Source: Deltaproteobacteria bacterium (GTDB lineage Bacteria > Myxococcota_A > UBA9160 > UBA6930). From it: a DNA stretch of 64,000 bases. The stretch's first letter is position 1, and every line of letters begins with the position of its first letter. The notes beneath the pieces are model-generated. The model made no database searches. It had not been told where the DNA came from and was given only the letters and a program-made list of their open reading frames with translations. Made by a program: the position numbers and the translations under genes. Below, piece by piece: positions 162 through 23,681 of this stretch. Location: positions 9,858 to 73,857 of the forward strand of contig JAJDAP010000034.1 in NCBI GenBank assembly GCA_029261795.1, written 5' to 3'.

Positions 162-878
162 TCAGGTTCCGGAGAAAAACGCCCGAGCCTGGATGGCGCT
201 GGTGACACCCAGGTAGCCGCCGGCAGCCGTCCCGGCGATCCAAGCAGCGAAGACCCAGACTGAGTTGTCTACCGATTGGAGAGCTACGCCGGGCAACAGC
301 AGGAGGAACATCGCCGCTGCGGGAATCATCGGCCGGGCCAACTGACCGCGCCCGACGCCCAGCACCAAAAATACGGAAGCCGCGCCGATCAAGAGCGTCG
401 CGACCAGACCGAAGCAGAACGCACTCGCGGGTAGGCCGGCGACGTCGAAGATCCGCCTCCCCAGATCGGTTGCGGTCCACCAGTTCAGAAAGTGCTGGTC
501 CGCGCACGCGGCCCCGCATATTCCAGCAATCCCGAGACCCAGGAGTGCCACAGAGGCGGAATGCGAGAGGGGTAGCGAAGGCGTACGCACTCCGAGAAAC
601 GCAATCGCGAAGCTCACGACCAGCAATCCGGCCCATACCATACTGAAGACCGTGACATGCCACGGTGGGTGGTGATCAAAGGGGTGTCCCGAGAGCAGCA
701 GCGTGACGCCGATCGCACCAACGACGCCCGCGACTCCTGCCGCAACCAGCAGCCGAGCCGTGCGACCGCCCCGGAGTTCGACATCGCTCCTGATCGCCGA
801 GAGGATGCCCGAACGGACACCGTCTCGAACCTCGGACCGGCGGCTGTCCTTCTCCATTCGCGAACCTACCTCGGTCAC
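162..878 (-). CDS. Multi-pass membrane protein, putative anti-sigma factor / metal sensor
   Basis: Directly downstream of the ECF sigma gene; about 6-7 hydrophobic segments; motifs HPFDHHPPWH and CGAACADQH; GTG start. Confidence 0.65.
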   Translation of the reverse strand: MTEVGSRMEKDSRRSEVRDGVRSGILSAIRSDVELRGGRTARLLVAAGVAGVVGAIGVTLLLSGHPFDHHPPWHVTVFSMVWAGLLVVSFAIAFLGVRTPSLPLSHSASVALLGLGIAGICGAACADQHFLNWWTATDLGRRIFDVAGLPASAFCFGLVATLLIGAASVFLVLGVGRGQLARPMIPAAAMFLLLLPGVALQSVDNSVWVFAAWIAGTAAGGYLGVTSAIQARAFFSGT

Positions 879-899
879 GGCCCGGTCTGAACGGGACGG

Positions 900-1481
900 C
901 TATCCAACCGGGAGCCCGAAGGCTCCATCTGGTCCCACCGACGCACGCAGCCTTCGGATCGCACGGGAGGCTGTCTTCTTGACGGCATCGACGGACTTGC
1001 CAAGATGGTTTGCAACCTCCGCGTATCCGACTCCATCGACCTTGGCGGCGAGCAGAACGTAACGCTCTTCGTTCGAGAGGAATTGCAGCAGTTGCATCGA
1101 CTGTTCGCGATCCGCCACTTCCCCCTCAGCGTTGCGTTGCTCAGCCCTCGGCTCACGGTCCTCGATCGAGAACTCATGGTGGCGAAAGGCACGTCGGTGG
1201 TCATCGACGAGTAGCCGGTTCGCGATCTGGAAGAACCAGGGGGTGAAAGGCCGATCGGAGTCATATCGATCCCGCGCCCGATGGATGCGCAGGAACAACT
1301 CCTGGTAGAGATCCTCGGCGCGCTCGGAAGATCCGGTTCGTTTGAGGAAGAAGGCGTAGGCCCGTGGTTCGTAGCGCCGAAACAGTTCGTCGAACGCGTC
1401 GCCGTCGCCGTCGCCGTAGTGCGCCATGAGCGTTTCATCTGACAGATCCCTCTGCTGCGCGAATCGTGCTGTATCTGACAT
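900..1481 (-). CDS. ECF (sigma-70 group 4) RNA polymerase sigma factor
   Basis: DETLMAHY..DAFDELFRRY, AEDLYQELFLRI, PFTPWFFQIANRLLVD (sigma2), YAEVANHLGKSVDAVKKTASRA (sigma4 HTH); start moved to ATG 1481 with AGGAGG RBS. Confidence 0.93.
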   Translation of the reverse strand: MSDTARFAQQRDLSDETLMAHYGDGDGDAFDELFRRYEPRAYAFFLKRTGSSERAEDLYQELFLRIHRARDRYDSDRPFTPWFFQIANRLLVDDHRRAFRHHEFSIEDREPRAEQRNAEGEVADREQSMQLLQFLSNEERYVLLAAKVDGVGYAEVANHLGKSVDAVKKTASRAIRRLRASVGPDGAFGLPVG

Positions 1482-1643
1482 ACGACCTCCTCTCGCGAAC
1501 GGTGACGAGAAAACGGCGATGCACATTGCGTGCCGCTGTGTGTAGCCCGCGCCCGCGAGCGCAGGGCGTTCGTAGGTGCGTCAGTTTGGCATAAGCCAAT
1601 GACCGGCGTGGCTTTCTGACCCATTCCTCGCCGCGGGGACGCA

Positions 1644-2870: not shown

Positions 2871-2900
2871 GCGACGCGCCCCGAGACCCGATCGCGATCG

Positions 2901-2927: not shown

Positions 2928-2998
2928 CTACATGGCAGGCGCGAAGGTGGCGGTCGCACGGAGCGTATCGGGCACAAGCGCAAGCAAGGAGATGACAG

Positions 2999-3349
2999 AT
3001 GAGAACCGTTATCGCACTAGCCCTGTTCGTGGGGGCCGTGGCCCTGGTGCCGGCCTTCGCACTCGCGGGGAGCGACTCCCGGTCGGTCGAGCAGTTCGCA
3101 GTCGAGAAGGCGGAGACGCCGGAGGAGCACGCGGACCTGGAACGGCACTACCGCTCGTTGGCGGAAGAAGCGCGCGGACACGTACGCCACCACGAGAAGA
3201 TGGGAAGCTCCTACCGAATAGGCAAGCTGCACAACCGGCAGCGTATGGAGCGCCACTGCAAGAAAATCGCCGAGAGCTACGCCAGCACGGCCAAGGAATA
3301 CGAGGCACTCGCCGACCTCCACAAGGACGAGGCGAGGCAGAGCGAGTAA
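2999..3349 (+). CDS. Small secreted His-rich helical protein, putative periplasmic metal-binding protein
   Basis: Sec signal (..VPAFA); 8 His, 2 Met and 1 Cys in the mature part (EHADLERHY, GHVRHHEKM, MERHC, LHKD); AAGGAG RBS. Confidence 0.7.
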   Translation: MRTVIALALFVGAVALVPAFALAGSDSRSVEQFAVEKAETPEEHADLERHYRSLAEEARGHVRHHEKMGSSYRIGKLHNRQRMERHCKKIAESYASTAKEYEALADLHKDEARQSE

Positions 3350-3374
3350 TCACTCCATCAGTGAGGTTCATGTC

Positions 3375-3818
3375 ATGCGCCTTCTCGATGAGCTTCAGAA
3401 GTTCCTGCACCCGGAGCACATCCTGTCGAAGGATCGGAGCGGCGCGCTCGCGGACAACGAGATCCAAGCTGCGACCGCACTCCTGCTTCTCGAGGCCGCT
3501 CACGGAGATGAGGAATTCGTCTGGCGGGAACACCGCTTGATCGTCCAGGGGCTAGAGCGCGCGTTCGGACTGGCTAGACCCGAGGTGCTCCAGCTGCTCG
3601 AGCGTTCCGAAGAGATCCGGCCCCCTACGGTCCGCCTCGCGGACGTCACCCAGGTGATCATGGATCGCTACGACGAGACTCAGCGGCAGGAGATCGTTCG
3701 ACTCCTGTGGGCGATCGTAGATGCCGACGGAGTCGCCACGGAGTGGGAGAAGGTATTCGCCACGCACGTGGCGCAAGCGCTTGGGATCAGCGACGAGGCA
3801 GCAGCCCAAGGTCGCTAG
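3375..3818 (+). CDS. terB: TerB-family protein
   Basis: AATALLLLEAAHGDEEF..E, LWAIVDADG...WEKVF pattern typical of TerB-like folds. Confidence 0.8.
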   Translation: MRLLDELQKFLHPEHILSKDRSGALADNEIQAATALLLLEAAHGDEEFVWREHRLIVQGLERAFGLARPEVLQLLERSEEIRPPTVRLADVTQVIMDRYDETQRQEIVRLLWAIVDADGVATEWEKVFATHVAQALGISDEAAAQGR

Positions 3819-3894: not shown

Positions 3895-4473
3895 CTAGCC
3901 GCGCGACGGCCGCCCGTGGAGACAGACTGAGAAGTAGTGCCCGAGTGCAATGCCGATGAACCCGATTCCCGCGAGCCCTTCCGCAGCCGCCACGACCTTC
4001 CCAAGCCTGGAGATCGGCGCTAGATCGCCATAGCCCACCGTCGTGATCGTCATGACGCTGAGATAGAGGGACTCGAAGAATAGGTCATGCAGACGCTCGA
4101 TGTGCACACCAAGCGTCACCGGATCGGCCGACCAGAGGAGCGGCAGCCCGACGAAGCTCGCCTCGGTGCTACTCGCCTGCGCGATCGCGTAGCTGCTCGC
4201 GAAAAGCACGATCAGGGCGCCATAGGCCTCCAGCAAAGCGGATAGTTGGAATCGGAGCCGTCCGCTCAGGATCCAGCGCAGCGTCCAGATCACTCCGGCG
4301 CACGGGACGACCACGCCAAGTACGAAGAGCCCGCTGAGGATCCATGGCGAAGGAACAGCGGCCTCCGCCGCGGAGCCGTGCATGCGCAATGAAATGACGA
4401 GCAGCAAACCAAGGTAAGGCGTGAGGCTCGCCGTCAACGTCGGCACAACAATCTGGAGGTGACTTGAATTCAT
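3895..4473 (-). CDS. Two-TM potassium channel pore protein (Ion_trans_2), no RCK domain
   Basis: Selectivity filter YLSVMTITTVGYGDLAP followed by inner helix; extra N-terminal TM segments. Confidence 0.88.
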   Translation of the reverse strand: MNSSHLQIVVPTLTASLTPYLGLLLVISLRMHGSAAEAAVPSPWILSGLFVLGVVVPCAGVIWTLRWILSGRLRFQLSALLEAYGALIVLFASSYAIAQASSTEASFVGLPLLWSADPVTLGVHIERLHDLFFESLYLSVMTITTVGYGDLAPISRLGKVVAAAEGLAGIGFIGIALGHYFSVCLHGRPSRG

Positions 4474-5189
4474 TGGCTCCTGCTTCCTTCTTCACGCAAT
4501 CCATCTGACGATCCAGTATGCAGTTGCGTCCCATGGCGGAGCCGAGAAACGGCGATGGGAATCTGCGCGGCAAGCTGCCTAGACCCCCAACGCGCGAGTT
4601 CAGTGACGGAGAGCCAACGCGTGCCGCCTCCGGGGTAGCGAAGGGCGCGCCACGGGCTCTCGAAGAATGGGACCTGTTGCTCCGAGAACTGCCCCGACCA
4701 CAGAAGAAGCCCCTCCGAACCTCCGTGTAGGGTGGCCCGGAAGCCGACTCCGGCCGCCCGTTGGGGCCGTGTCAGCGCGTTCCTCGGCGACCAGTGCGTG
4801 ACCTCGACCACCAGGAGCGCATCGACGCCGAGACGTTCCGCGGCAACGCGGGCGAGCCGGGCCGCATCACGGTGTAGGTCGGAGGACCGCGTGAGATTGG
4901 CGAGGGTGCCGCGCGTATCCTTGGCGGGCACCACGTCGACCCCTCGTTCCATCAGGGCCTCAGCGAGATAGTGGCCGACGTGTACGGCGGCCTCAGCGTA
5001 GCGCGCCGGGTCGATGGCGGACCGCCTCTCCACCTCGGGCGCAAGCGTCACCGAGGCCACTGCGACGCGATATGCCGACCCTTCGCGTCTCGCAACAGAC
5101 TGGCTTGCCGGAGCCCACGGCGCGCAGGCCAGCGCGCCGGTTGCTGCCAGGATGAGCACGCTCGAAACGCGCCGACTGAGTCCCACCAT
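4470..5189 (-). CDS. Hypothetical lipoprotein
   Basis: Lipobox ..GALAC at residue 22; GAGGAG RBS; ATGA overlap with the K+ channel gene. Confidence 0.7.
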   Translation of the reverse strand: MVGLSRRVSSVLILAATGALACAPWAPASQSVARREGSAYRVAVASVTLAPEVERRSAIDPARYAEAAVHVGHYLAEALMERGVDVVPAKDTRGTLANLTRSSDLHRDAARLARVAAERLGVDALLVVEVTHWSPRNALTRPQRAAGVGFRATLHGGSEGLLLWSGQFSEQQVPFFESPWRALRYPGGGTRWLSVTELARWGSRQLAAQIPIAVSRLRHGTQLHTGSSDGLREEGSRSQ

Positions 5190-5226: not shown

Positions 5227-5252
5227 TACGGGAGCGGCGTCGCCCTGTGACT
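5227..5252 (-). promoter_or_regulatory. Putative ECF promoter copy 3: AGTCAC-N16-CGTA
   Basis: Minus strand AGTCAC agggcgacgccgctcc CGTA; 38 nt before ATG 5189. Confidence 0.75.
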
Positions 5253-5327: not shown

Positions 5328-5354
5328 AGTCACCAGATCGACCCGGATGCCGTA
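5328..5354 (+). promoter_or_regulatory. Putative ECF promoter copy 4 (mtrAB): AGTCAC-N17-CGTA
   Basis: AGTCAC cagatcgacccggatgc CGTA; 63 nt before ATG 5417. Confidence 0.78.
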
Positions 5355-5416: not shown

Positions 5417-6373
5417 ATGAACAGCTTGACAGCCTCCAAGCGAACGAGGATTGCCACACTCTGCGTAGGGTCGTTCGTAGCGGCCCTCGTGGCCTGCGTC
5501 AGCGTGGTCTGGACCCCGCTGGGGCCCCGCCGCACGGCCGACGTCGCAAACGCGGAACCCATCGGTGCTCCTGTCTGCGCGGCCTGTCACGAGCAGGTGC
5601 ATGGACAAGAGTCTCCGGCTCCCTTCCACGCGGACTGCGAGAGCTGCCATGGACCGGGAAGCCTTCACGCCGCGAGTGGCGACACTCAGCTCATCCGCTT
5701 CCCGGGTAACGACGACTGTCTCGCGTGTCACACGGAGGGCGTGGCCGAGCACATGGAGTGGGGGACCAGCGAGCACGCCCGCGCTGGGTTGTACTGCTCC
5801 GACTGCCACAATCCCCACAGCGGTGAGGAGAGCGAGCTCCGGCCCTTCGAGCAGGTCGCCCTCCCACGCATCGATCTCGAGTCCGCCCTCTGCGTCGAGT
5901 GCCACCGGGACGTGGCGTCGCGCCTGAAGTTTCCTTCGCACCATCCCGTGGCCGAGGGGGCGCTGGGATGCACCAGCTGCCACAACGCTCACGAAGACCG
6001 GCGCGTCTCGTTCGGTGATCGCAACGAGCGTTGTGCGACCTGCCACCAGGACTACATGGGCCCCTGGGTATTCGAGCACCCGCCGGTCGTCGAGGACTGC
6101 ATGACCTGCCATAACCCTCACGGCGCCGTTACCGAGAATCTCCTCGAGACGATCCAGCCCGTGATCTGTCTCTCCTGTCACTCCCTCCCGGACAGCCGAC
6201 ATCACACCACGGGCTCGTCCGGAATCCCCGGCCAATCGACCATCAGTGGCGACTACCCGACAGCGCCCGGGACGACCATCGGAACGCAGGAGGCCAGAGC
6301 CTTCTTGCGCCGGTGCACCGACTGCCATAGCGCGGTCCACGGATCCTATACCGATGAACACCTACGTCACTAG
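5417..6373 (+). CDS. mtrA: Decaheme c-type cytochrome, MtrA/DmsE/MtoA/PioA family
   Basis: Exactly 10 CXXCH (CAACH, CESCH, CLACH, CSDCH, CVECH, CTSCH, CATCH, CMTCH, CLSCH, CTDCH); GPWVFEHPPV..C..CHNPHG family signature; N-terminal signal with possible LVAC lipobox; start moved to ATG 5417. Confidence 0.93.
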   Translation: MNSLTASKRTRIATLCVGSFVAALVACVSVVWTPLGPRRTADVANAEPIGAPVCAACHEQVHGQESPAPFHADCESCHGPGSLHAASGDTQLIRFPGNDDCLACHTEGVAEHMEWGTSEHARAGLYCSDCHNPHSGEESELRPFEQVALPRIDLESALCVECHRDVASRLKFPSHHPVAEGALGCTSCHNAHEDRRVSFGDRNERCATCHQDYMGPWVFEHPPVVEDCMTCHNPHGAVTENLLETIQPVICLSCHSLPDSRHHTTGSSGIPGQSTISGDYPTAPGTTIGTQEARAFLRRCTDCHSAVHGSYTDEHLRH

Positions 6374-8483
6374 AGCCGCCATCCTCGCCGGCTACGTCCT
6401 CATTGCGACGCCGTTGCTGGCGGACGATCTGACACCGCGAGGCGATGTCACCGTGGGCATCCAGCTCTACCGCCCGGAGGGCCCATTCGAGCGCGACGAC
6501 ACGGCCTCGTTCTTCGACAAGTACCGGTACCTCAAGAACAAGGGCACCGATCTGCCGTTCTTCGTCGATCTGACGCACCTCGACCTGGGCCTCGTCCGCG
6601 ACGACGGAACCTACGCAGTTCGCTTGCAGCGCTGGAGCCCCGGGTGGTCGAACGATCGTGCCGAGCTGGAGGGGGGCTGGCCGGGAGTGTCGCTGCTGGC
6701 CGACTATCGTCGCTATCGGAGCGACGAGCTCCGTTTGTTCTCGAGTCCGACCGGCGTCGGCAGCGCATTCGCCAGCGTGTTCAACGACGACACGTCCGCG
6801 GACGACCGCTTCTTCGTGCGACGAACGAGTGCGGGGCTGGCGGTTCGCGTGCGTCCCGCAGGCTTCGACCACCCATCCGACCTCCTGAAGGAACTGGAGT
6901 TCTCCTCGCGATACGAGCACCGGAGCGGCCAGCGCCAGGATCGCTACGTGCTGAGCGGTTCCCAGGAGCGCGGTGCCGGGGGTCTCAATACGTCCCGCTT
7001 CCGGGCGTTCACCCGGGACATCGACCAGGACGTCACCAGCATCGGGACGCGGATCGTTTCGACTCCCTGGGATCTGCTCACCAGCGCTATCGAGTTGGAG
7101 TTCGAGAGTTTTCGCGAGCGCGCTCCCACTACCACGCTCGGCGCGGGAGAGCCGGGGAGTATCTCGGCCTTCGATCCGGTCGGTATTCTCGCCGGATTCC
7201 AGGATCCCCTGAAGTCACTGCGCGCTTTCAACTACGTCCCTGACACGGATCGCCTGTACGCGTCGCTGCGCGTCCGGCCCCATCTGGGACCGGTTCAATT
7301 CCACGGCGGCGCGTCTGTCACGCGCTTGAAGCAGGCGGGGAGTCGCGCGCCGGAGCAGATCGCCTTTGGCCTCGATGACAATTCGGTCACGACCTATTCG
7401 ATCTACGGCGCTGGCGAGTTTCCGCTGACCGATCAGTTGGCCCTCAACGGGTACGCGAAGTTCTGGAAGCGCCGCAACGCACTCGATTCGGGCAACATCC
7501 TATTCTCCAAGGATCAGACGGACGCCTTCCTCGAGCAGCTGCGCGAGGTGAAGAACGGCCTGGAGCTTCGCGCCACACCGATGGCGGGAACGGACCTGAC
7601 GCTGGGATATCGGGGACGCTTCGTCCGGCGCGACCTCGAGTTCCAGAAGAGCACCCGTTCCGTGGCGCCCGAGTTCACGATCATCGGTGAGGACACCACG
7701 ATACACACCGGCTACCTGGGCTGGAACCTTCGTCTGGTACGGAGCCTCCAACTCTCCGGGGAGGCGGGTTACGAGAACGGCACCGAAATCGGGTACCCGC
7801 GAGAGCTGGAGCGCGCGTACTACGCGAAGGCCCGAGTCTCCTACGTGCTGCCCCGCCCCGTCCCGATGACGCTCACGGCGTCCGGCCGCTTCCTCGACGG
7901 CGAGAGCGACGAGATCGAGCTACTGGGCGAATCAGCGGGAGCGCGGCGCAAGCAGTTCGAGGTGAGACGCTGGAACTACGACGTGACCTTGACAGCGGTT
8001 CCCAAGGAATCGCTCGTGGTCTTCGGCTCGTTCACCCAGCACCGCAACGAGGAACGGTTCGCGCACCTGCGCTCCAATATCCGCCGGTTCGAGGGACCGG
8101 TGCCGGCGAGCATCCTGAACTTCTTCATCGATTCGGTCCCGCAGTACGAAAGCGACGTACTGAGCGTCACCCTTGGTGGCAGCTACCAGATCAGCAAGAC
8201 ACTCGAGGCATCCCTGGCGACCACGGTCACCAGAACCCGCGTCGACATCGCGGGCGGAGGTGGAGCCGCCCGCGCCCTCGACGAAGTCAATCAGATCCGG
8301 AACCAGATCACGAGCATCGAGTGCGGCCTGTCCTATCGAGCCACCCGGCAGGTTCGGCTAGACCTGGGATACCGGTTCGACCGATTCCACGACGATGTCC
8401 GACTGGAGGCACTCGACTTCAGCACGCGCGAGCACACACTCTCGGTCAGCGTGACGATGGACCTCGATGCGCTGACCCCCTGA
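6354..8483 (+). CDS. mtrB: Outer-membrane beta-barrel porin, MtrB/PioB family
   Basis: About 709 aa, Sec signal, alternating amphipathic beta-strand pattern throughout, overlaps the 3' end of mtrA; family call rests mainly on size and synteny. Confidence 0.82.
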   Translation: MNTYVTRAAILAGYVLIATPLLADDLTPRGDVTVGIQLYRPEGPFERDDTASFFDKYRYLKNKGTDLPFFVDLTHLDLGLVRDDGTYAVRLQRWSPGWSNDRAELEGGWPGVSLLADYRRYRSDELRLFSSPTGVGSAFASVFNDDTSADDRFFVRRTSAGLAVRVRPAGFDHPSDLLKELEFSSRYEHRSGQRQDRYVLSGSQERGAGGLNTSRFRAFTRDIDQDVTSIGTRIVSTPWDLLTSAIELEFESFRERAPTTTLGAGEPGSISAFDPVGILAGFQDPLKSLRAFNYVPDTDRLYASLRVRPHLGPVQFHGGASVTRLKQAGSRAPEQIAFGLDDNSVTTYSIYGAGEFPLTDQLALNGYAKFWKRRNALDSGNILFSKDQTDAFLEQLREVKNGLELRATPMAGTDLTLGYRGRFVRRDLEFQKSTRSVAPEFTIIGEDTTIHTGYLGWNLRLVRSLQLSGEAGYENGTEIGYPRELERAYYAKARVSYVLPRPVPMTLTASGRFLDGESDEIELLGESAGARRKQFEVRRWNYDVTLTAVPKESLVVFGSFTQHRNEERFAHLRSNIRRFEGPVPASILNFFIDSVPQYESDVLSVTLGGSYQISKTLEASLATTVTRTRVDIAGGGGAARALDEVNQIRNQITSIECGLSYRATRQVRLDLGYRFDRFHDDVRLEALDFSTREHTLSVSVTMDLDALTP

Positions 8484-10040: not shown

Positions 10041-10042
10041 GG

Positions 10043-13795: not shown

Positions 13796-13833
13796 CAACG
13801 ATCACCTCCCGGCTCGATCACGAACGATGAACC

Positions 13834-14235
13834 TCAGTCGGAGCCCGGCGAGGACTCGTCGGGCGTCTTCCCGAGCTCGGAGAGATAGGCCACGATCGAG
13901 TCGAGTTCTGCCTCCGTTCCCGTGAAGCCCATGGGATGCTTCCTTCCGTCCAGATCCACCTCCTTGCGAAGGAACGCAACGATCCACTCGGATTGATGCC
14001 GGTCGCCCACGAGGGAGAGGTCGGGGGGACCATTCGACGCGTCCTCCTCTCCGAACGGATCGTCTGCAACAGCAGGCGACGAGCCGAGCTTTTCGACCCC
14101 ATCCGTGGCAATGCCGTGGCAGAGGTTGCAGCGCTGCTGCAGGAACTTGTCCCTACCCTCCTCCGCGGCGGCAGGGGCCGCCGTGAGCAGAGCCGCGAAG
14201 GCAACCCACAACCCGCATGCAATGAGCTTCCACAT
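13834..14235 (-). CDS. Periplasmic monoheme cytochrome c
   Basis: Sec signal ..PAAA; CNLCH; PDLSLVG; HPMGF candidate Met ligand; GGAGG RBS before ATG 14235. Confidence 0.85.
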   Translation of the reverse strand: MWKLIACGLWVAFAALLTAAPAAAEEGRDKFLQQRCNLCHGIATDGVEKLGSSPAVADDPFGEEDASNGPPDLSLVGDRHQSEWIVAFLRKEVDLDGRKHPMGFTGTEAELDSIVAYLSELGKTPDESSPGSD

Positions 14236-14279
14236 CTTCCCTCCCCGAGCGAATCGCTCCATGGAGATCCTGCCGTGTA

Positions 14280-14306
14280 TACGGCACGAGCGTGCCGGAA
14301 GTGACT
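14280..14306 (-). promoter_or_regulatory. Putative ECF promoter copy 5 (cytochrome/Qrc-like operon): AGTCAC-N17-CGTA
   Basis: Minus strand AGTCAC ttccggcacgctcgtgc CGTA; 45 nt before ATG 14235. Confidence 0.78.
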
Positions 14307-14314
14307 CCGATAGG

Positions 14315-14341
14315 AGTCACCAGATTTCCCTGGCCCCCGTA
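14315..14341 (+). promoter_or_regulatory. Putative ECF promoter copy 6 (gdhA): AGTCAC-N17-CGTA
   Basis: AGTCAC cagatttccctggcccc CGTA; 20 nt before TTG 14361; shares AGTCACCAGAT with copy 4. Confidence 0.78.
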
Positions 14342-14360
14342 TTGTGGAGTGGAGAACTCC

Positions 14361-15711: not shown

Positions 15712-16380
15712 CTATTTGGCTGGCGCTTGGTCCGGGGGCGCCCGGAAGACCGCCAGGGTCGCCATCCCAGCGGCAGAGACGCTCATCCGTTCCAGGTTCG
15801 GGAGAGTTCGAATCGGCTCACGGTCGACAACGCGATAGGAGAAGGGGTTGCCGATTGCAGTGACGACCGCGAGCAGGAGCCTGGAGCGGGGCGGGGTAAA
15901 GAAGACGAAGACGGCCGTTCCTCCCGGCGCCAGCTTTCGCAACGCATCGCGAACGGTTGCGTCCGGCGTATCGAGGTGCGAGAGGAGCCAGCTGGAAACG
16001 ACGAAGTCGAAGGTGCCGCCGACGGCCTGCAGGTCGGTCGCGTCGCCGATGCGTAGCTCGATCCTGTCGTCCGCTTGCGCTCGGGCTCGAGCTCGCACCA
16101 GCATCTCTTCGCTCGAGTCGATCCCGAGGTAGGAACCGAACCCGCGGGTCCAGCGGAACAGGCGTTCGATGTTGATCCCGGTACCAGGAGCCAGCTCGAG
16201 GATTCGCGATTCGGCACCGATCCGCTCTCGAAAGAGCTGGTCGAGATCTTCCTCGATGGGACGAGTCCAGCGACCCCAGACGGCTCGGAACGCGTCATAG
16301 AAGCGCGCGAACCAGCTGTACACACGGCGGACTCGGTCCAGCTGGGGAGGGTTCACGGTTGCGTTGGTCCCGTTCGTCAT
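15712..16380 (-). CDS. Class I SAM-dependent methyltransferase (UbiE-like)
   Basis: ILELAPGTG motif I, GIDSSEEML, FDFVVSSWLLSH, LAPGG. Confidence 0.85.
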   Translation of the reverse strand: MTNGTNATVNPPQLDRVRRVYSWFARFYDAFRAVWGRWTRPIEEDLDQLFRERIGAESRILELAPGTGINIERLFRWTRGFGSYLGIDSSEEMLVRARARAQADDRIELRIGDATDLQAVGGTFDFVVSSWLLSHLDTPDATVRDALRKLAPGGTAVFVFFTPPRSRLLLAVVTAIGNPFSYRVVDREPIRTLPNLERMSVSAAGMATLAVFRAPPDQAPAK

Positions 16381-17039
16381 GGGAGTTGGTGCCTCGCCGG
16401 CTGCGCAGCGCGCTTCCAGCTGGGAATCCAGCGAGGCGTCACACGGGCGTACTCGGCGTAGGCCGGACCGAACTCCGTGCGCGCCTCCTCCTCTTCACGC
16501 AGTGCGAATCGCACGTACATGTGAACGAGGATTGGAAACATCACGAGCGTGATCAGTGTCGGCCACTGGAAGAGGAAGCCGGCAAGGATCGCGATGAATC
16601 CCACGTACTGGGGATGACGAATGCGCGAATAGGCTCCGGTCGTGGCGAGTCCACCTTCGCGTTGGGCGCGGTAGAGGATTGGCCAGGCGACCGAGAGCAG
16701 CCAGAAGCCACCGCCGATCAGGACATAGCTGAGCACATGGAAGGGATCGAAATGGGGGTCGCCCTCCCAACCGAGAAGCGTGTGCCAGAGATGGCCAGCT
16801 TCATGCGAAAAGATGTCGAGTTGTGGGAAGTGCTGCCCGAACCAGCCGGAGAGCAGATAGATGGTGAGCGGGAAGCCGTACATCTCGACGAACAACGCCA
16901 CGAGGAATGCGGAGAAGGCCCCGAACGAACGCCAGTCACGTGAGCTCTGCGGCTTCGCAAAACTGAAGGCGAACAGGATGAAGATGGCCGCGTTGAGCAC
17001 GACCACGGACCACAGGCCGTAGGCCGATTCGTGACTCAC
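16377..17039 (-). CDS. Isoprenylcysteine carboxyl methyltransferase (ICMT/PEMT)-family membrane protein
   Basis: FVEMYGFPLTIYLL, TTGAYSRIRHPQYVG, EEEE..FG.AY.EY; family commonly found beside copper-resistance genes. Confidence 0.88.
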   Translation of the reverse strand: MSHESAYGLWSVVVLNAAIFILFAFSFAKPQSSRDWRSFGAFSAFLVALFVEMYGFPLTIYLLSGWFGQHFPQLDIFSHEAGHLWHTLLGWEGDPHFDPFHVLSYVLIGGGFWLLSVAWPILYRAQREGGLATTGAYSRIRHPQYVGFIAILAGFLFQWPTLITLVMFPILVHMYVRFALREEEEARTEFGPAYAEYARVTPRWIPSWKRAAQPARHQLP

Positions 17040-17296
17040 GGTTCCTGGCCTGGCTGCGAGGCGTCACCCCCAGTGGCGTGCGATCCGGGACCCTTGTGCC
17101 CGCGGTGCATGAACACGTGCATCAGTGGACAGATCGCGAGAATCATCCATGGCAGATACGCGATCACGTGTGCCCGGTGCTCGGCCCACAGGAAGTAGGC
17201 TGCGGCAGCCGCAAACACACCAAAAGCGATGCGTCTGGAGAGCGCGCCGTCCGCGCCGGGCTCCTGGGTCACAGGGCTGGACCGCAGCTCATCCAT
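17036..17296 (-). CDS. DUF2933-family small membrane protein
   Basis: AEHRAH...LPWMILAICPLMHVFMHRGH signature; start moved to ATG 17296. Confidence 0.85.
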   Translation of the reverse strand: MDELRSSPVTQEPGADGALSRRIAFGVFAAAAAYFLWAEHRAHVIAYLPWMILAICPLMHVFMHRGHKGPGSHATGGDASQPGQEP

Positions 17297-17334: not shown

Positions 17335-17361
17335 TACGGCGCACGCCCCCGGGTGGTGACC
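17335..17361 (-). promoter_or_regulatory. Putative ECF promoter copy 7: GGTCAC-N17-CGTA
   Basis: Minus strand GGTCAC cacccgggggcgtgcgc CGTA; 39 nt before ATG 17296. Confidence 0.78.
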
Positions 17362-17365
17362 GATC

Positions 17366-17391
17366 GGTCACGATTCCGGGTCTTGAACGTA
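17366..17391 (+). promoter_or_regulatory. Putative ECF promoter copy 8 (cus operon): GGTCAC-N16-CGTA
   Basis: GGTCAC gattccgggtcttgaa CGTA; 46 nt before GTG 17437; shares GGTCACGAT.CCG with copy 1. Confidence 0.78.
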
Positions 17392-17436: not shown

Positions 17437-17709
17437 GTGGCACAATTCATTGGGGATATCGCTTTCCTGTTCGAACTGGGCCTCGTTGCGGTGGGGATCG
17501 TGCTGATTCATTTTGGACGCGAGCGCTCGGCCGGCATGCTCAGGACCGCGGGGTGGATCCTCGTCATAGGTGCCTTGGGCACCGCGATCTGCACTAGTGT
17601 CTTCTGGTTCCGGTACCTGCAGGCGGGCGACTTCGACCGGGCCGAGGCGGCTCCGTTCGTGGAGTTTGACCACGACCTCGATTCCCCCGGCATCGCGCTG
17701 CTCGGATGA
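17437..17709 (+). CDS. Small 2-TM hypothetical protein heading the cus operon
   Basis: GTG start with AGGAG RBS; two hydrophobic helices and an acidic C-tail; 90 aa. Confidence 0.6.
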   Translation: MAQFIGDIAFLFELGLVAVGIVLIHFGRERSAGMLRTAGWILVIGALGTAICTSVFWFRYLQAGDFDRAEAAPFVEFDHDLDSPGIALLG

Positions 17710-17757
17710 CGATGTGTGGTGCTCGCACGCGGCGACACAACACCAAGAGGCGGCGAG

Positions 17758-19068
17758 ATGAAGACAGACACGAGCAATGCGACCGGAAGGAAGCCGCTCC
17801 TGACCCTGGCGTTGCTGGGTGGATGCCTGTGCCTGATTGGAGCGGCAGATCCGCCGTCCGAAGCACCGCCGGACCCTTTGCCACTCTCCTGGTGCTTGGA
17901 GCGTGGCGAAGTCGCGAACCCTGATCTGGAGATTGCGCAAACGATGGCGGAGGCCGCCGACGCGCGCGTGTACCCGGCCGGCGCGCTCCCTGACCCTCGC
18001 TTCCGCTACGAACTCAGCAATGTGCCCACGGGAGATCTCGACCTCGACTCAACGGCTCTTTCTGGTCAGCAACTCGGCCTGAACCAACGCGTTCCCTTCC
18101 CCGGACTCCTCGGGAGCCAACGAAGGGCGGCGCGATCCGCCGCCAACGCCTCGAAGGAGACAGCCGGCGACGAGTCCCGGCGAATCGCCGCCGCGGTCGA
18201 GCAGGCTTGGGTCGAACTCGGGTTCGCCCAACGCGCCCTCGAAGTCACGATCGAGAACATCGACCTGCTACGCCAGCTCGCACAGATAGCAGAGGCCAAA
18301 TACCGCGTCGGAGTTGGGCTCCAGCAGGATGTGATCCGTGCCCAGGTTGCGATTACCGAACTCCTGGACGAACGCCTTCGGCGGCGGGCTTCGATCCGCT
18401 CGTCCGAGGCGCGCCTCAGTGGCTTGCTCGACCTTGGGCCCGAAACGCGGCTTCCACGAACCGCTTCTCTTCGCGAGGCGACTCCACTCCCTGAGCTGGC
18501 GTCTCTTCTCGCGGAGCTGGAATCCACGAGTCCGCGCCTGCGCGCTGCGGCCCAACGCGTCGATGAGGCAGAGCATCGGAAGCGGGTGGCGCAGCTCGAG
18601 GGCTACCCCGACTTCGACCTCGGTCTTGGCTACCGCGTGCGGCGCAAGGTCCCCGGAGATCCAGTCGGTGGAGACGATTTCCTCGGCGCGAGCGTCACGA
18701 TTCGGTTGCCGGTCGACCGGCAGAAATGGAACTCGCAGGTTGCCGAACGGGACGCTCTGGTGCGGAGCAGCCGCGCAGGGTACCGACGGTTGCGCGCTGC
18801 GTTGCGCGACGTGCTTCGAAGTCGCCACGCAGACCTCGACCGCGCGGACCAGGAGATCGCACTTCTCGAGGGAGGGCTCGTGCCCCAGGCACGTCAATCC
18901 CTGGATTCGAGTCGTTCTGGCTATGAGGTCGACAAGGTGGACTTCCTGAGTCTGATCGACAGCCAGGTCAGGTTGCTCAACGCGCAGCTCCGCCTGGAGC
19001 GTGCGATAGCCGATCGCCGCGCGGCGTTCGCCGGGGTAGAGGCCACAATGGGAGTGAACCTGCGATGA
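17758..19068 (+). CDS. cusC: TolC-family outer membrane factor (CusC-like)
   Basis: Signal peptide; NPDL, ALPDP, YRVGVGLQQDV, GYEVDKVDFLSLIDSQ OMF repeats; first of a CBA trio. Confidence 0.88.
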   Translation: MKTDTSNATGRKPLLTLALLGGCLCLIGAADPPSEAPPDPLPLSWCLERGEVANPDLEIAQTMAEAADARVYPAGALPDPRFRYELSNVPTGDLDLDSTALSGQQLGLNQRVPFPGLLGSQRRAARSAANASKETAGDESRRIAAAVEQAWVELGFAQRALEVTIENIDLLRQLAQIAEAKYRVGVGLQQDVIRAQVAITELLDERLRRRASIRSSEARLSGLLDLGPETRLPRTASLREATPLPELASLLAELESTSPRLRAAAQRVDEAEHRKRVAQLEGYPDFDLGLGYRVRRKVPGDPVGGDDFLGASVTIRLPVDRQKWNSQVAERDALVRSSRAGYRRLRAALRDVLRSRHADLDRADQEIALLEGGLVPQARQSLDSSRSGYEVDKVDFLSLIDSQVRLLNAQLRLERAIADRRAAFAGVEATMGVNLR

Positions 19069-20549
19069 CCGGCGGACGCTGGATCCTGACGATCACACTG
19101 GTAGCCGCCGCAGCCGTCGGCGGCTGGTGGCTGGGGAAGAGCAGCGACAACGCAACCAGCGCGGCCGCCGCGGACGGTCCTTGTCCCGGAGGCGCGAACG
19201 CCCTCTACTGGAAGGCACCGATGGACCCGACCTACGTCCGGGACGCGCCCGGCAAGAGCCCGATGGGTATGGACATGGTGGCGGTGTGTCCGGGCGGCGA
19301 GTCCGCAGACGCAGAGGGCGGCGTCCGGATCGAGCCGGGCCTCGTGCAGAACATGGGCGTGCGCGTCGAAGCTGTCGTCCGTCAGGACCTCGCGCGCAAG
19401 GTGCGGACTGTCGGTCGCGTCGCCTATGACGAGCGCCGGGTCGACCACGTGCATACGAAGATCCAAGGCTGGATCGAGCGTCTCTTCGTCGAGTATGAGG
19501 GCGAACCCGTACGTCGCGGCCAACCGCTCCTCGAAATCTACTCGCCGGAACTCGTCTCGACCCAGGAGGAACTCCTGCTTGCGGCGCGCTACCGCGACTC
19601 GACTCGCGGGAGCCAGTTCGAGGATGTTTCGCGCGGAGGCGAGGATCTTCTGCAAGCCACGCGTCGACGGCTCGAGCTCTGGGACATCTCGAAGCGCGAC
19701 ATCGACCGCCTTCTCGAAACCGGAGAGGTGCGCAAGAACCTCACGCTATATGCGCCGACCGAGGGCGTCGTGACGCACCTCATGGTTCGAAAAGGCATGG
19801 AGGTCGGACCCAACAACAATCTCTACACGATCGCCGATCTCTCTCGCGTCTGGGTGTATGCGGATGTCTACGAGTACGAGCTTCCGTGGGTGCGAGAGGG
19901 GCAGAAGGCGACAATCGACCTGAGTTACCTGCCGGGTCGCAGCTTCGAGGGATCGGTGACCTATGTCTACCCGTTCCTCGACCCGAAGACGCGCACAGCG
20001 CGCGTCCGCGTCGAGCTCGACAACGCGGATCTGACGCTCAAGCCGGACATGTTCGCCAACGTCACCATCGAGACGACGACGCGCGAGGGCGTCCTCGCCG
20101 TTTCCGAAGAGGCGGTGATCCGCTCTGGGAGGCGCACCCTCGTCTTCGTGGCTATGGGCGAGGGACGCTTCTCACCTCGCGAAGTGACGCTCGGGATCGA
20201 CTCCGGCGACGGTTGGGTGGAGATCCAAGACGGTCTCCGCGAAGGGGATCGGGTCGTCACATCCGGCCAGTTCCTGATTGACAGCGAAAGCAAGCTCCAG
20301 GAAGCCGTCCAGAAGATGCTCCGGACGGAGCCCTCCGCGGAAATGGGCGCCGACGACGATTCGGCCCCCGTCGATCCGCCCGATATCGGCAGCATGGATA
20401 TGGGCGGGGAGGGAACTCCGGAGATGCAGGATCCGCATGCGGGGCACCAGATGCCCGAACCCGACGCCGATATGGATGCTCACACCGGCCACTCAATGGG
20501 CGGGCCGACCTCGGCAGCGCCCGCGCGCGAAGAAGGAGCCGGGGAGTAG
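19065..20549 (+). CDS. cusB: RND periplasmic adaptor, CusB-like, with N-terminal Met motif and C-terminal His/Met tail
   Basis: YWKAPMDPTY...PGKSPMGMDM; IYSPELVSTQEE; YPFLDPKTRT..R; LKPDMFAN; FLIDSESKL. Confidence 0.92.
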   Translation: MTGGRWILTITLVAAAAVGGWWLGKSSDNATSAAAADGPCPGGANALYWKAPMDPTYVRDAPGKSPMGMDMVAVCPGGESADAEGGVRIEPGLVQNMGVRVEAVVRQDLARKVRTVGRVAYDERRVDHVHTKIQGWIERLFVEYEGEPVRRGQPLLEIYSPELVSTQEELLLAARYRDSTRGSQFEDVSRGGEDLLQATRRRLELWDISKRDIDRLLETGEVRKNLTLYAPTEGVVTHLMVRKGMEVGPNNNLYTIADLSRVWVYADVYEYELPWVREGQKATIDLSYLPGRSFEGSVTYVYPFLDPKTRTARVRVELDNADLTLKPDMFANVTIETTTREGVLAVSEEAVIRSGRRTLVFVAMGEGRFSPREVTLGIDSGDGWVEIQDGLREGDRVVTSGQFLIDSESKLQEAVQKMLRTEPSAEMGADDDSAPVDPPDIGSMDMGGEGTPEMQDPHAGHQMPEPDADMDAHTGHSMGGPTSAAPAREEGAGE

Positions 20550-20552
20550 CGC

Positions 20553-23500
20553 ATGCTGCGACGAATCATCGAGGGCTCCGCGCGAAATCCGCTTCTCGTC
20601 GGCCTGGCCACCGTCGCGCTCATCCTATGGGGCGGCTACGCCACCTACAACATGCCGCTCGACGCGATCCCGGACCTCTCCGACGTCCAGGTGATCGTCT
20701 TCACCGAATTTCCGGGCCAAGCACCCCAGGTCGTCGAAGACCAGGTCACCTACCCGCTCACGACATCGATGCTTGCGGTGCCGTTTGCCAAGACCGTGCG
20801 CGGTTATTCGTTCTTCGGCTTCTCGTTCGTATACGTGATCTTCGAGGACGGGACCGATCTCTACTGGGCGCGCTCGCGGGTGCTCGAGTACCTGAACTTC
20901 GTCGCGGGGCGTCTCCCACCCGGTGTCACGCCTAGCCTGGGCCCCGACGCGACGGGCGTGGGTTGGGTCTATGAGTACGCGCTGATCGATCCGACCGGCA
21001 AGCACGACCTCGCCGAGCTTCGCTCGCTCCAGGATTGGTACCTCCGATACGAGCTTCAGACCGTCTCTGGCGTGGCCGAGGTCGCCTCGATCGGCGGCTT
21101 CGTGCGTCAATACCAGGTCGAAGTTGAGCCCAACGCGCTCGCCGCCTATGGCATCTCGCTCTCGGCAGTGCGCCATGCGATCCAACGCAGCAACAACGAC
21201 GTCGGTGGGCGGCTCGTCGAGATGGCCGAGTCCGAGTTCATGGTCCGGGGACGGGGTTACATCAAGTCGATCGACGACCTCGAACAGATCGCCATCGGGA
21301 CCGACGGGCGCGGTACACCCGTCCTGCTTCGCGACGTGGCGAACATCCACACGGGGCCGGAGCTTCGGCGGGGCCTCACGGAGCTGAATGGCGAAGGCGA
21401 GGTGGCCGCCGGAATCGTCGTGATGCGCTTCGGCGAAAACGCGCTCGAAGTCATCCAAAACGTGAAGGCCAAACTCGAGACGCTCAAGGCCGGCCTGCCG
21501 CCGGGCGTCGAGATCGTCGAAGTGTACGACCGCGCGGACCTCATCGAGCGCGCCGTCGACAACCTGCAAGAGAAGCTCCTCGAGGAGGTCGCGATCGTCG
21601 CGCTGGTGTGCGTGCTCTTTCTCTTCCACCTGCGCAGTGCCTTGGTCGCCGTCCTGACGCTTCCGCTCGGCATCCTGGTCTCGTTCACCGTGATGTATCA
21701 CCAGGGACTCAACGCCAACATCATGTCCCTCGGCGGAATCGCCATCGCGATCGGTGCCATGGTCGATGCAGCCGTGGTGATGGTCGAGAACGCGCACAAG
21801 CACCTGGAGCGCGACGAAGGGAAGAAGCCGCGATCGGAGATCCTGATCGAGGCCGCAGCCGAGGTGGGTCCCGCGCTCTTCTTCTCGCTGCTCATCATCA
21901 CCGTCTCCTTCCTGCCCGTCTTCAGCCTCCAGGCCCAGGAGGGACGACTCTTCACTCCCCTCGCCTTCACCAAGACCTACGCGATGGCGGGTGCTGCATT
22001 CCTCGCCATCACGATAGTGCCGCTCCTGATGATCTGGTTCATCCGAGGCAACATCGTTGCCGAACACCGCAATCCACTGAACCGCTTCCTGCTCTGGCTC
22101 TACGCACCCGTCATTCGCTTCGTTCTTCGTTACAAGGTCTCGGTATTGCTGGGTGCCCTCGCCCTGCTGGTCGTGACGGTGCTGCCCCTCCGACAGTTGG
22201 GCTCGGAATTCATGCCCCCGCTGAACGAGGGCGATCTTCTCTACATGCCGACCACCCTGCCCGGGATCTCGATCACGAAGGCGCGCGAGATCCTCCAGCA
22301 GACCGACCGCATGATCCGCCAGTTCCCCGAGGTCCATCACGTCTTCGGCAAGATCGGCCGGGCCGAGACCGCCACTGACCCTGCACCACTGTCCATGATC
22401 GAGACCACGATCATGCTCAAACCGCCCGATGAGTGGCGGCCCGGAATGACCATCCAGAAGCTCATCTCGGAACTCGACAAGGCGGTGCGATTGCCCGGCG
22501 TAACGAACGCCTGGACGATGCCGATCAAGACACGCATCGACATGCTCTCGACCGGGATCAAGACGCCGGTGGGGATCAAGGTTGCCGGCCCCGATCTCGA
22601 GATCCTGCAGGATCTCGGTGAACAGATCGAAGCGATCCTCCAGAACGAGCCCGGCACCCTGAGTGTCTTCGCCGAGCGCGTCGTCGGTGGCAACTACCTC
22701 GACTTCGAGATCGATCGGCGCGAGATTGCCCGTTACGGACTCACCGTTGGCGACGTGCAGGACGTGATCCAGTCCGCGATCGGCGGCCGCAACGTCACGT
22801 TCACCGTCGAGGGGCTCGAGCGCTACCCGGTGAACCTTCGGTATTCGCGCGAGCTACGCGACAACCTGACGATGTTGCGCCGCGTGTTGGTGCCCACACC
22901 GACGGGAGCGCAGGTTCCTCTCTCGCAACTTGCCACGCTCGAGATCAAGAAGGGCCCCCCGTCGATCAAGAGCGAGAACGCCCGACTCAACGCCTGGATC
23001 TACGTCGACCTCGACGGTGTCGATGTCGGGACCTGGGTCAACCGGGCGAAGGTGACCCTCGAGCAGGAACTCACGTTGCCGGCGGGCTACAGCATTGCCT
23101 GGAGCGGGCAATACGAGTACATGGAGCGCGCGGCCGAGCGCCTTCAGATCGTCGTCCCGATCACGCTCGGGATCATCTTCCTGCTGCTCTACCTCAACTT
23201 CCGACGACTCTCGGACGCCTTGATCGTGATGTTGACGCTCCCGTTCGGATTGATCGGCGGTGTGTGGCTGCTCTGGTCGCTCGACTACGACCTCAGTGTC
23301 GCGGTGGGTGTCGGCTTCATTGCCCTGGCAGGTGTCTCGGCAGAATTGGGCGTGATCCTTCTCGTCTTCCTCGAAGAAGCCGTCTCCCGCTTCGAACGCG
23401 AAGGGCGCCTCCGCACAAAGGCCGACCTGCTCGCGGCGGTACGCGAGGGCGCGGGCCTCCGCGTACGACCGATCATGATGACGGTGACGTCCACGATCGC

Positions 23501-23681
23501 GGGCCTCCTTCCGATCATGTGGGGATCCGGGACCGGCTCCGAGACGATGCGTCGCATCGCCGCACCCATGGTGGGGGGACTCCTGTCGGCAACGGTGCTG
23601 ACGCTGGTCGTGATCCCGGTCCTCTTCTCGCTGGTGCGCGGCTCGAAGCTTCCCGACGCGGAGACCGCGCAGCCCGACTGA
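20553..23681 (+). CDS. cusA: Heavy-metal RND permease CusA/SilA (Cu+/Ag+)
   Basis: LDAIPDLSDVQV, AMVDAAVVMVEN, Met-triad contexts LLYMP / PLSMIET / RIDML, R.RP.MMT, RIAAPMVGG. Confidence 0.95.
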   Translation: MLRRIIEGSARNPLLVGLATVALILWGGYATYNMPLDAIPDLSDVQVIVFTEFPGQAPQVVEDQVTYPLTTSMLAVPFAKTVRGYSFFGFSFVYVIFEDGTDLYWARSRVLEYLNFVAGRLPPGVTPSLGPDATGVGWVYEYALIDPTGKHDLAELRSLQDWYLRYELQTVSGVAEVASIGGFVRQYQVEVEPNALAAYGISLSAVRHAIQRSNNDVGGRLVEMAESEFMVRGRGYIKSIDDLEQIAIGTDGRGTPVLLRDVANIHTGPELRRGLTELNGEGEVAAGIVVMRFGENALEVIQNVKAKLETLKAGLPPGVEIVEVYDRADLIERAVDNLQEKLLEEVAIVALVCVLFLFHLRSALVAVLTLPLGILVSFTVMYHQGLNANIMSLGGIAIAIGAMVDAAVVMVENAHKHLERDEGKKPRSEILIEAAAEVGPALFFSLLIITVSFLPVFSLQAQEGRLFTPLAFTKTYAMAGAAFLAITIVPLLMIWFIRGNIVAEHRNPLNRFLLWLYAPVIRFVLRYKVSVLLGALALLVVTVLPLRQLGSEFMPPLNEGDLLYMPTTLPGISITKAREILQQTDRMIRQFPEVHHVFGKIGRAETATDPAPLSMIETTIMLKPPDEWRPGMTIQKLISELDKAVRLPGVTNAWTMPIKTRIDMLSTGIKTPVGIKVAGPDLEILQDLGEQIEAILQNEPGTLSVFAERVVGGNYLDFEIDRREIARYGLTVGDVQDVIQSAIGGRNVTFTVEGLERYPVNLRYSRELRDNLTMLRRVLVPTPTGAQVPLSQLATLEIKKGPPSIKSENARLNAWIYVDLDGVDVGTWVNRAKVTLEQELTLPAGYSIAWSGQYEYMERAAERLQIVVPITLGIIFLLLYLNFRRLSDALIVMLTLPFGLIGGVWLLWSLDYDLSVAVGVGFIALAGVSAELGVILLVFLEEAVSRFEREGRLRTKADLLAAVREGAGLRVRPIMMTVTSTIAGLLPIMWGSGTGSETMRRIAAPMVGGLLSATVLTLVVIPVLFSLVRGSKLPDAETAQPD

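Follow-up and report, generated by a model that had tools for sequence, protein, structure and literature searches.

Why would a copper and silver efflux pump share its promoter with an electron conduit that crosses the cell envelope? The question is raised by a stretch of 64,000 nucleotides (the window) from contig JAJDAP010000034.1 (C34) of assembly GCA_029261795.1, a metagenome-assembled genome (MAG) of an uncultured Deltaproteobacteria bacterium. The original prediction made on this DNA placed cusCBA, mtrAB and a Qrc-like respiratory complex under one switch, in which a metal-sensing anti-sigma factor would release an extracytoplasmic function (ECF) sigma factor. It further proposed that the conduit changes the redox state of metals outside the cell, as an anaerobic counterpart of multicopper oxidases. 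On balance, we regard the island found in the left part of the window as the self-contained regulon of an uncharacterised pair, an ECF sigma factor and a putative anti-sigma factor with six transmembrane segments (6-TM), patchily distributed among uncultured Myxococcota. Co-regulation, through a single type of ECF promoter, of Cu/Ag efflux and of an electron conduit across the envelope, an arrangement of this single genome, is well supported by comparison of sequences. A redox wire acting on metals belongs to speculation.

The promoter motif and its distribution

The original prediction gave no promoter sequence and the motif was sought de novo. GTCAC-N15-18-CGTA has 10 matches in the window, all within positions 101-23,488, for 0.75 expected from shuffled sequences. 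With a spacer of 16 or 17 nt, GTCAC-N16/17-CGTA has 10 copies within positions 1-23,500, for about 0.14 expected from the rate in the remaining genome. Genome-wide, there are 44 such matches in 5.74 Mb, i.e. the 10 copies of this 23.4-kb stretch and 34 in the other 5.71 Mb. These 34 core matches were considered as further regulon members and set aside, since most of them (25) fall inside long coding-like frames. A search of the island for further members with one mismatch allowed retrieved no convincingly intergenic site.

Nine of the island copies are intergenic and oriented to a start codon located 18-72 nt away, except for gdh, whose first possible starts (GTG at 14349 and TTG at 14364) are just 8-23 nt from the -10. 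On the reverse strand, these copies precede a porin-like gene (440 aa) that runs past the left end of the window (101-125), the sigma gene (1481-1506), a lipoprotein-K+ channel unit (5227-5251), a cytochrome c-qrc-like operon (14280-14305) and a DUF2933-ICMT-methyltransferase unit (17335-17360). On the forward strand, they precede the genes of a His-rich protein and of TerB (2902-2927), mtrAB (5329-5354, 63 nt before mtrA), gdh (14316-14341, back to back with the site of the qrc-like operon) and a unit comprising a small membrane protein and cusCBA (17367-17391). The shared promoter that had been postulated for cusCBA, DUF2933-ICMT, His-rich protein-terB, mtrAB and the Qrc-like operon was thus recovered as an ECF-type motif at each of them. 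The tenth match (23464-23488, reverse strand), antisense within cusA and poorly scored by the position weight matrix (PWM), is probably a chance occurrence. The nine putative promoters head nine transcription units encompassing about 22 genes, with no apparently functional copy elsewhere in the genome, and the regulon of the ECF sigma factor is restricted to the island in this genome.

Twenty-two orthologues of the sigma factor (59-71% identity) were found, all in MAGs of uncultured Myxococcota (formerly Deltaproteobacteria); their loci are designated L001 to L022. In 16 of these 22 loci, the motif directly precedes the sigma gene, and the 302 kb surrounding the orthologous sigma genes contain 76 motifs, about 40 times the background rate. 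A plausible start of an open reading frame (ORF) is found at most about 220 nt downstream of 73 of the 76; the motif is therefore directed at genes, as expected of a promoter. Alignment of the sites, including those of relatives, indicates that the two blocks and the 16/17 spacing are conserved and that the sequence of the spacer is variable. Given its location upstream of most orthologous sigma genes and its approximately 40-fold enrichment around them, the motif is very probably the promoter recognised by the island's own, autoregulated ECF sigma factor.

The back-to-back pairs at 17356-17371 and 14301-14320 share palindromic -35 regions, GTGAC-CGATCG-GTCAC and GTGACTCCGATAGGAGTCAC respectively. 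In this window and in relatives, the spacing of back-to-back copies ranges from 6 to 77 nt. GATCG or GATAG precedes GTCAC in five of the nine sites of this genome, a feature that is not kept in relatives.

The sigma factor and its putative anti-sigma factor

The sigma gene (900-1481, reverse strand) was assigned from Pfam, NCBIfam and its 22 orthologues. Its product belongs to the ECF group (group IV) of sigma-70 factors: it carries the domains of the family (PF04542, E 1.4e-15; PF08281, E 2.7e-8; TIGR02937, 86 bits for a cut-off of 42.9), and the gene has its own upstream promoter and an adjoining 6-TM gene. Comparison of 23 loci (the 22 orthologous loci and this one) also revealed a sigma-54-type -24/-12 element (GGCAC-N6-TGC; 1521-1534, reverse strand) before the sigma operon. 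In 19 of the 23 loci, GG[CT]A[CT]-N6-TGC is found 13-14 nt before the ECF -35, its background frequency being 0.06 per kb on each strand. This putative sigma-54-dependent promoter, with its GG-N10-GC signature, its -24/-12 layout and its conserved position, indicates that the sigma operon would receive a second input through an enhancer-binding activator. The single switch that had been proposed is retained as far as the common ECF motif of all units is concerned, but a conserved sigma-54 promoter is also located before the sigma gene.

The -10 of the ECF promoter overlaps the ATG of the sigma gene (CGTATG), and a GAGG Shine-Dalgarno sequence sits within the spacer of the promoter. A transcript from the sigma-54 promoter would code for the full-length sigma factor; the ECF transcript should begin inside the sigma ORF, with translation possible only from the invariant Met19 (DExLM). 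Residues 1-18 of the sigma factor are variable in length and sequence, and the versions proposed by gene callers in L082 and L083 have 174 aa.

The gene of the putative anti-sigma factor (162-857, reverse strand), assigned from family alignment and position, begins 22 nt past the sigma gene, with a gap of 21-70 nt across all loci. The protein has a short cytoplasmic N-terminus and six transmembrane segments, and displays a conserved HPxxHHxxWH loop, a CxxxCxDxH motif and a third Cys. Its family counts at least 400 environmental members, all unnamed and devoid of annotation or Pfam domain, among which H58, H63, H67, C114, H122 and C148 are invariant. According to the reading of the hydrophobic segments, the invariant His and Cys are predicted to lie at the periplasmic ends of TM1-TM4. 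Because of these invariant residues on the predicted periplasmic face, a role of the 6-TM protein as a metal- or thiol-sensing anti-sigma factor is plausible.

Metal-stress genes and electron conduit

The cusCBA transcription unit, on the forward strand, starts with the gene of a 90-aa protein with two transmembrane segments and no family match (17437-17706), followed by cusC (17716-19068, OEP domain), cusB (19065-20549, HMBD and HlyD_D23 domains) and cusA (20553-23681). CusA scores 1249 bits with TIGR00914 (cut-off of 701) and 1295 bits against E. coli CusA (3T51/3K07), with an identity estimated at about 65%. In the alignment with the E. coli protein, M573, M623 and M672 are all conserved, in agreement with the intact Met triad that had been announced. 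CusB scores 216 bits with the CusB model (cut-off of 390), with both its domains present and OEP encoded in the same operon. No CusF gene was found in this island; in L001, a CusF gene follows the motif. As claimed previously, the island encodes no CusRS or CueR-type regulator, and none was found over the following 20 kb; all the genes named at that time were recovered in the island by gene calls and Pfam/NCBIfam.

Pfam and NCBIfam identify, on the reverse strand, a DUF2933 gene (17036-17296), an ICMT-family gene (16377-17039) and an S-adenosylmethionine-dependent methyltransferase gene (15712-16380). DUF2933 has been linked to copper clusters (PMC8478169). The secreted His-rich helical-hairpin protein (LIC_10421-like; 2999-3349, forward strand), assigned from NCBIfam, relatives and a structural model, forms one transcription unit with a TerB-domain protein (Pfam; 3375-3818, forward strand). 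H65 and H86-C87 are invariant in the His-rich protein and H44 is nearly so. Its predicted model is a two-helix hairpin with a predicted local distance difference test (pLDDT) of 85, and its best PDB fold match (E 0.36) corresponds to generic helical hairpins; a function of the protein as metal chaperone, metal sponge or co-sensor is conceivable. A CnrX-like four-helix sensor was considered and rejected, the hairpin model having no significant PDB fold match. The other units encode a putative lipoprotein (gene call; 4470-5189, reverse strand), a K+-channel-type protein (Pfam; 3895-4473, reverse strand) and a glutamate dehydrogenase with an uncertain start codon (Pfam; 14349-15635, forward strand). 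The gdh gene is found behind the ECF motif in three genomes (14316-15635 here, 5726-7073 in L002 and 8325-9624 in L008); its mRNA is possibly leaderless or short-leadered here.

The gene of the His-rich LIC_10421-like protein is a near-universal target of the motif in relatives and is usually divergent from the sigma gene. Homologues of this protein, the most constant member of the regulon, are encoded in most of L003-L022, often in two or three copies per locus. The other genes most often located behind the motif encode outer-membrane factors, cusCBA-type pumps, porin (homologues in L005, L008 and L019), lipoprotein, glutamate dehydrogenase, ICMT, K+ channel, TerB, TerC and monohaem cytochromes c, as well as CusF (PF11604, E 8e-25), a Met-rich protein, a Cys-rich four-helix-like protein with a twin-arginine translocation (Tat) signal and Haem_bd proteins with His-rich tails. 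The latter (PF14376, C-terminal His-rich tail), absent from the present island, are encoded with their own motif next after the anti-sigma gene in L003 (13125), L009 (11347), L011 (11347) and L082 (8359-8817). This content, together with the Met triad of CusA and the literature on DUF2933, points to Cu/Ag or soft-metal stress as the likely signal of the regulon.

The conduit genes start with mtrA (5417-6373, forward strand), which encodes a putative periplasmic decahaem cytochrome with ten CXXCH motifs and a signal peptide. This protein aligns through its residues 45-310 with chain A of the Mtr complex from Shewanella (6R2Q_A, E 2.3e-28) and scores 183.2 bits with the DmsE family model TIGR03508, slightly below the cut-off of 192.2. 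Its best NCBIfam match is the Geobacter GSU2203 decahaem family, with weak matches to ExtN/ExtO (selenite/tellurite reduction). It is the single MtrA-type gene of the genome at E<=1e-20. The adjacent gene (6354-8483, forward strand) encodes a 709-aa MtrB/PioB-type outer-membrane beta-barrel. Its AlphaFold model (AF2, pLDDT 71) is a large barrel whose top PDB fold match is 6R2Q_B (E 1.2e-19, TM-scores of 0.62/0.67), the next match (1e-8) being eleven orders of magnitude weaker. PF11854 is carried by five of 11 MtrB-like homologues, the match of the protein itself having an E-value of 0.0024. An MtrA/DmsE-family decahaem cytochrome and an adjacent MtrB/PioB-type barrel are therefore both present.

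On the reverse strand, the five-gene operon encodes a monohaem cytochrome c (Pfam; 13834-14238), a pentahaem QrcA-like protein (13274-13798), a QrcB-like Tat molybdopterin-family subunit (10908-13277), a QrcC-like Tat iron-sulfur (FeS) subunit (10043-10903) and an NrfD-type membrane subunit (8514-10040). QrcA, QrcB and QrcC are the best NCBIfam matches of the respective proteins; the NrfD-type subunit matches DsrP better than QrcD. All the scores remain below the cut-offs of the Qrc equivalogs (QrcA 86/180, QrcB 298/440, QrcC 261/400, QrcD 26/570), and the QrcB-like subunit, which has a Gly in place of the fourth FS0 Cys, seems non-catalytic. "Qrc-like" thus appears to be a fair label on the basis of architecture and best matches, short of membership of Qrc. 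In a related genome (G046), locus L076 (G046:C14, 7470-17618) encodes an EB_dh-domain protein, a decahaem cytochrome and a porin-sized protein of 733 aa without family match. The same five-gene cytochrome c-QrcABCD-like operon is located directly downstream, on the same strand and without ECF motif. This motif-free pairing supports the view that a porin-cytochrome module and a Qrc-like complex may form a functional unit in their own right.

The window has a G+C content of 64-70%, and genes were chosen according to codon-position G+C, Pfam and NCBIfam. ORF 2932-3540 was rejected as a gene, the true gene being that of the His-rich protein in a different frame. A Na+/H+ exchanger gene (1644-2870) lacks the motif and is probably outside the regulon. 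No tRNA gene, as a mark of mobility, was found in the 64-kb window. The island extends leftward into positions 1-9857 of C34, which carry the porin-like gene behind the motif at window position 101, then a Cys/His lipoprotein gene, a second heavy-metal efflux (HME) operon of the resistance-nodulation-division (RND) type (OEP, adaptor and RND protein of 1060 aa) and, at the contig end, a His-rich cupredoxin gene (CxxPGHxxxxM) that closes this part of the island. No exact motif was found ahead of this second pump.

Possible role of the conduit and comparison with known systems

In the mechanism that we propose, the sigma-54 promoter and its enhancer-binding activator would set the level of the sigma and anti-sigma factors. 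The anti-sigma factor would keep the sigma factor at the membrane until a thiophilic metal, which would most likely be Cu or Ag, occupies or oxidises the periplasm-facing His/Cys cluster of the anti-sigma factor. The released sigma factor would then amplify itself and induce cusCBA, the His-rich secreted protein, DUF2933-ICMT, TerB, the porin, gdh and the other units. Specifically in this genome, imported mtrAB and the cytochrome c-QrcABCD-like quinone-linked complex would be placed behind the same promoters, and a complete electron path from quinone to cell surface would thereby be co-induced with Cu/Ag efflux. Electrons would most likely flow from quinol to the outside, as in alternative complex III, and would reduce a metal or metalloid at or beyond the outer membrane, or be disposed of under metal stress; oxidation of Cu(I) is a less likely direction. 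On standard potentials, electrons would pass downhill from quinol to Cu(II), Ag(I), Au(III) or Te(IV). We advance, as a tentative reading, that the conduit is a stress-induced redox arm of metal resistance, a soft metal or metalloid tripping the anti-sigma factor and causing both export and delivery of electrons to the surface. It is just as tentatively that we propose, as part of this reading, that these electrons would immobilise or detoxify the metal there, e.g. as Ag(0), Cu(0)/Cu2O or Te(0).

Several observations weigh against this scheme. Neither Pfam nor NCBIfam gave any match for the 6-TM protein, which has no recognisable anti-sigma domain. Its identity as NrsF (DUF1109, PF06532) was rejected, the genome-wide search at E<=1 matching only another locus (on contig C30), and a profile built from 26 members of the family retrieved nothing from PDB at E<=10. 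Of the metal-sensing anti-sigma factor originally predicted, what stands is an adjoining 6-TM protein with invariant His and Cys on its predicted periplasmic side, but no anti-sigma domain was detected. Regarding the promoters, the flank-based PWM separates true sites from background modestly and ranks the mtrA site 9th and the qrc site 15th of 44. The regulon includes genes without an obvious metal role (gdh, K+ channel), and no MtrC-type surface cytochrome is encoded in the island. Finally, the assembly is a metagenome bin, but every part lies on one contig, and the search of sequencing runs found the locus in four DNA runs, all from one biofilm study, and in no RNA run.

The survey of the order (193 species-level genomes) also weighs against a general link of the conduit with the regulon. 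A close MtrA orthologue is found in 20 genomes, the anti-sigma factor in 32 and a qrc-like operon in three others, and mtrAB and the qrc-like operon lie behind the motif in this MAG alone. The co-occurrence of mtrAB with this ECF group, put forward in the original prediction as a check, is not supported: MtrA and the anti-sigma factor are found together in five of the 193 genomes, for 3.3 expected. None of 30 MtrA loci, for 14 of which flanks reaching at most ±10 kb were covered, has an upstream motif or a qrc operon, cus or sigma gene nearby. In the four other genomes having both MtrA and the ECF system, no motif was found upstream of mtrA even with one mismatch. The closest metagenomic relatives of the anti-sigma factor (64-68% identity) adjoin cusCBA or unrelated genes, never mtrAB. 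The link of the conduit with the regulon could be recent, weak or physiologically incidental. Since the qrc operon holds here the gdh-divergent position that the His-rich gene occupies in L008, capture of ECF promoters by imported mtrAB and qrc modules is suggested.

These data are consistent with another possible, but less likely, explanation: the conduit would be an ordinary respiratory or Fe/Mn module (Fe(III)/Mn(IV) reduction or Fe(II) oxidation) that landed behind ECF promoters. Co-induction would then reflect the habitat, e.g. metal-rich anoxic biofilm layers, rather than metal detoxification, which we likewise hold to be possible without favouring it. The mtrAB orthologues of about 20 genomes of the order, unlinked to the ECF system or cus, the motif-free porin-cytochrome cluster adjoining the qrc-like operon in G046 and the biofilm origin of the metagenome all argue for it. 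However, both modules have a promoter with a full match, at proper distance and in proper orientation, and chance occurrence at two given upstream regions of 150 nt is about 0.001 (genome rate of 0.003 per kb per strand). Moreover, control by a stress sigma factor only would be odd for housekeeping respiration when the MtrA-type gene concerned is the sole one of the genome.

It is rather doubtful that the ECF pair senses periplasmic thiol-oxidative or envelope stress, or a metalloid (tellurite, selenite), rather than Cu/Ag, the wire reducing oxyanions. Oxyanion reduction has been reported for Geobacter ext clusters, and the MtrA protein has its best match with the GSU2203 family and weak ones with ExtN/ExtO. 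TerB in this regulon and TerC in that of a relative are also in favour of such a signal, as are the conserved Cys of the periplasmic face, which could be a redox switch as in NrsF-type anti-sigma factors. However, the commonest regulon members in relatives are of Cu/Ag type (CusA with its Met triad, CusF, Met-rich protein), and DUF2933 is tied to copper clusters (PMC8478169).

The anaerobic counterpart of multicopper oxidases proposed in the original prediction appears improbable. In that case, Cu(I) would be oxidised outside the cell or in the periplasm and electrons would pass through the Qrc-like complex to the quinone pool. Consistent with this, no canonical CueO/PcoA is encoded in the genome, the sole match being a weak one to Cu-oxidase_3 (43.9 bits) within a frame of 1610 aa; MtrAB without MtrC recalls the MtoAB/PioAB systems of metal oxidation; and Qrc of sulfate reducers works toward quinone reduction. 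However, with a potential of about +0.15 V, Cu(II)/Cu(I) is above typical MtrA/MtoA haems and menaquinone, which makes electron transfer from Cu(I) to quinone uphill. The claim that CueO and CopA are lacking holds for a canonical CueO at the scale of the genome, but the MAG is 91% complete and a multicopper oxidase may simply be missing; CopA is absent from the island only, two CopA-type ATPases being encoded elsewhere in the genome. The anaerobic setting is weakened as well: the genome encodes one haem-copper oxidase, and the organism is not obviously anaerobic or confined to anoxia.

It is highly improbable that the motif copies before mtrA and the qrc-like operon resemble promoters without being active, or that the motif is an operator of another DNA-binding protein. 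The motif has just two short fixed blocks (5 and 4 bases), the palindromic pairs (17356-17371 and 14301-14320) are readable as operators and the PWM of flanking positions discriminates weakly, but the elements have a direction, a 16/17 spacing and a spacer of variable sequence, are always aimed at a start codon, lie at variable back-to-back distances and are kept before the sigma gene itself.

Metal-responsive ECF sigma factors driving RND efflux (CnrH) are already known. What is new here is an unannotated anti-sigma family, a regulon that can be read from the sequence and the conduit as an unprecedented regulon member; no report of an MtrAB-type conduit under a stress ECF promoter was found in the literature searched. 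If the conduit is indeed a redox arm of metal resistance, extracellular electron transfer and metal defence would be coupled at the regulatory level in a way not described so far. If co-induction is real, extracellular electron transfer would be used for, or wired to, metal defence rather than energy metabolism, and the sigma factor, the anti-sigma factor and the nine promoters would provide a compact set of parts for testing how rewiring evolves. Even if the conduit is a mere passenger, the definition of a widespread stress regulon of copper/silver type in uncultured Myxococcota would stand.

Among known systems, SigF-NrsF of Caulobacter and RpoQ-RsqA (gig) of Cupriavidus metallidurans, which are ECF16-type pairs, have a 6-TM anti-sigma factor with conserved periplasmic Cys and respond to heavy metals. 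The 6-TM architecture and conserved Cys are found here too, as a resemblance only: the Pfam NrsF model misses the protein at E<=1, the promoter differs, and the DUF692/DUF2063/DoxX genes of the SigF-NrsF/gig regulons are absent here. CorE, the other copper ECF sigma factor of myxobacteria besides CarQ, has a Cys-rich C-terminal tail and no anti-sigma factor; the sigma factor described here lacks such a tail. CarQ-CarR of Myxococcus xanthus, from the same phylum, is an ECF pair with a similar role, copper being able to inactivate its membrane-bound anti-sigma factor CarR by an unknown mechanism (PMC6851896), but CarQ governs carotenogenesis, not efflux. CnrYXH-CnrCBA of C. metallidurans (ECF20), in which CnrH controls the cnrCBA RND pump, shares with the present system a membrane-held ECF sigma factor, release by periplasmic metal, autoregulation and an RND pump (PMC6851896). 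It differs by its metals (Ni/Co) and pump (Cnr there, Cus here) and by a separate sensor, CnrX, acting on a single-pass anti-sigma factor, CnrY, whereas one 6-TM protein is found here; no CnrX-type sensor was recognised, the His-rich hairpin protein lacking a CnrX-like fold. Furthermore, the regulon is far larger here and includes respiratory-type genes.

As for the conduit, it resembles MtrAB, MtoAB and PioAB by its adjoining periplasmic decahaem cytochrome and large beta-barrel, with chains A and B of 6R2Q as best structures. It differs from them by the lack of an MtrC partner in the island, by an identity of 14% with MtrB in the structural alignment and by Pfam and TIGRFAM scores below the cut-offs. 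The quinone-linked complex resembles QrcABCD of Desulfovibrio and alternative complex III, with a multihaem cytochrome c, a seemingly non-catalytic molybdopterin-family subunit, a Tat FeS subunit and an NrfD-type quinone-interacting subunit. It has five haems rather than six, and an extra monohaem cytochrome c that likens it to alternative complex III. Concerning the organisation of the whole island, the closest parallel comes from Streptomyces coelicolor, whose self-contained ECF island has, to our knowledge, no metal or electron-transfer theme. The genes of that island, of another phylum and with another content, are reported to carry the promoter of their own ECF sigma factor (bioRxiv 10.1101/247056), as do those of the island described here.

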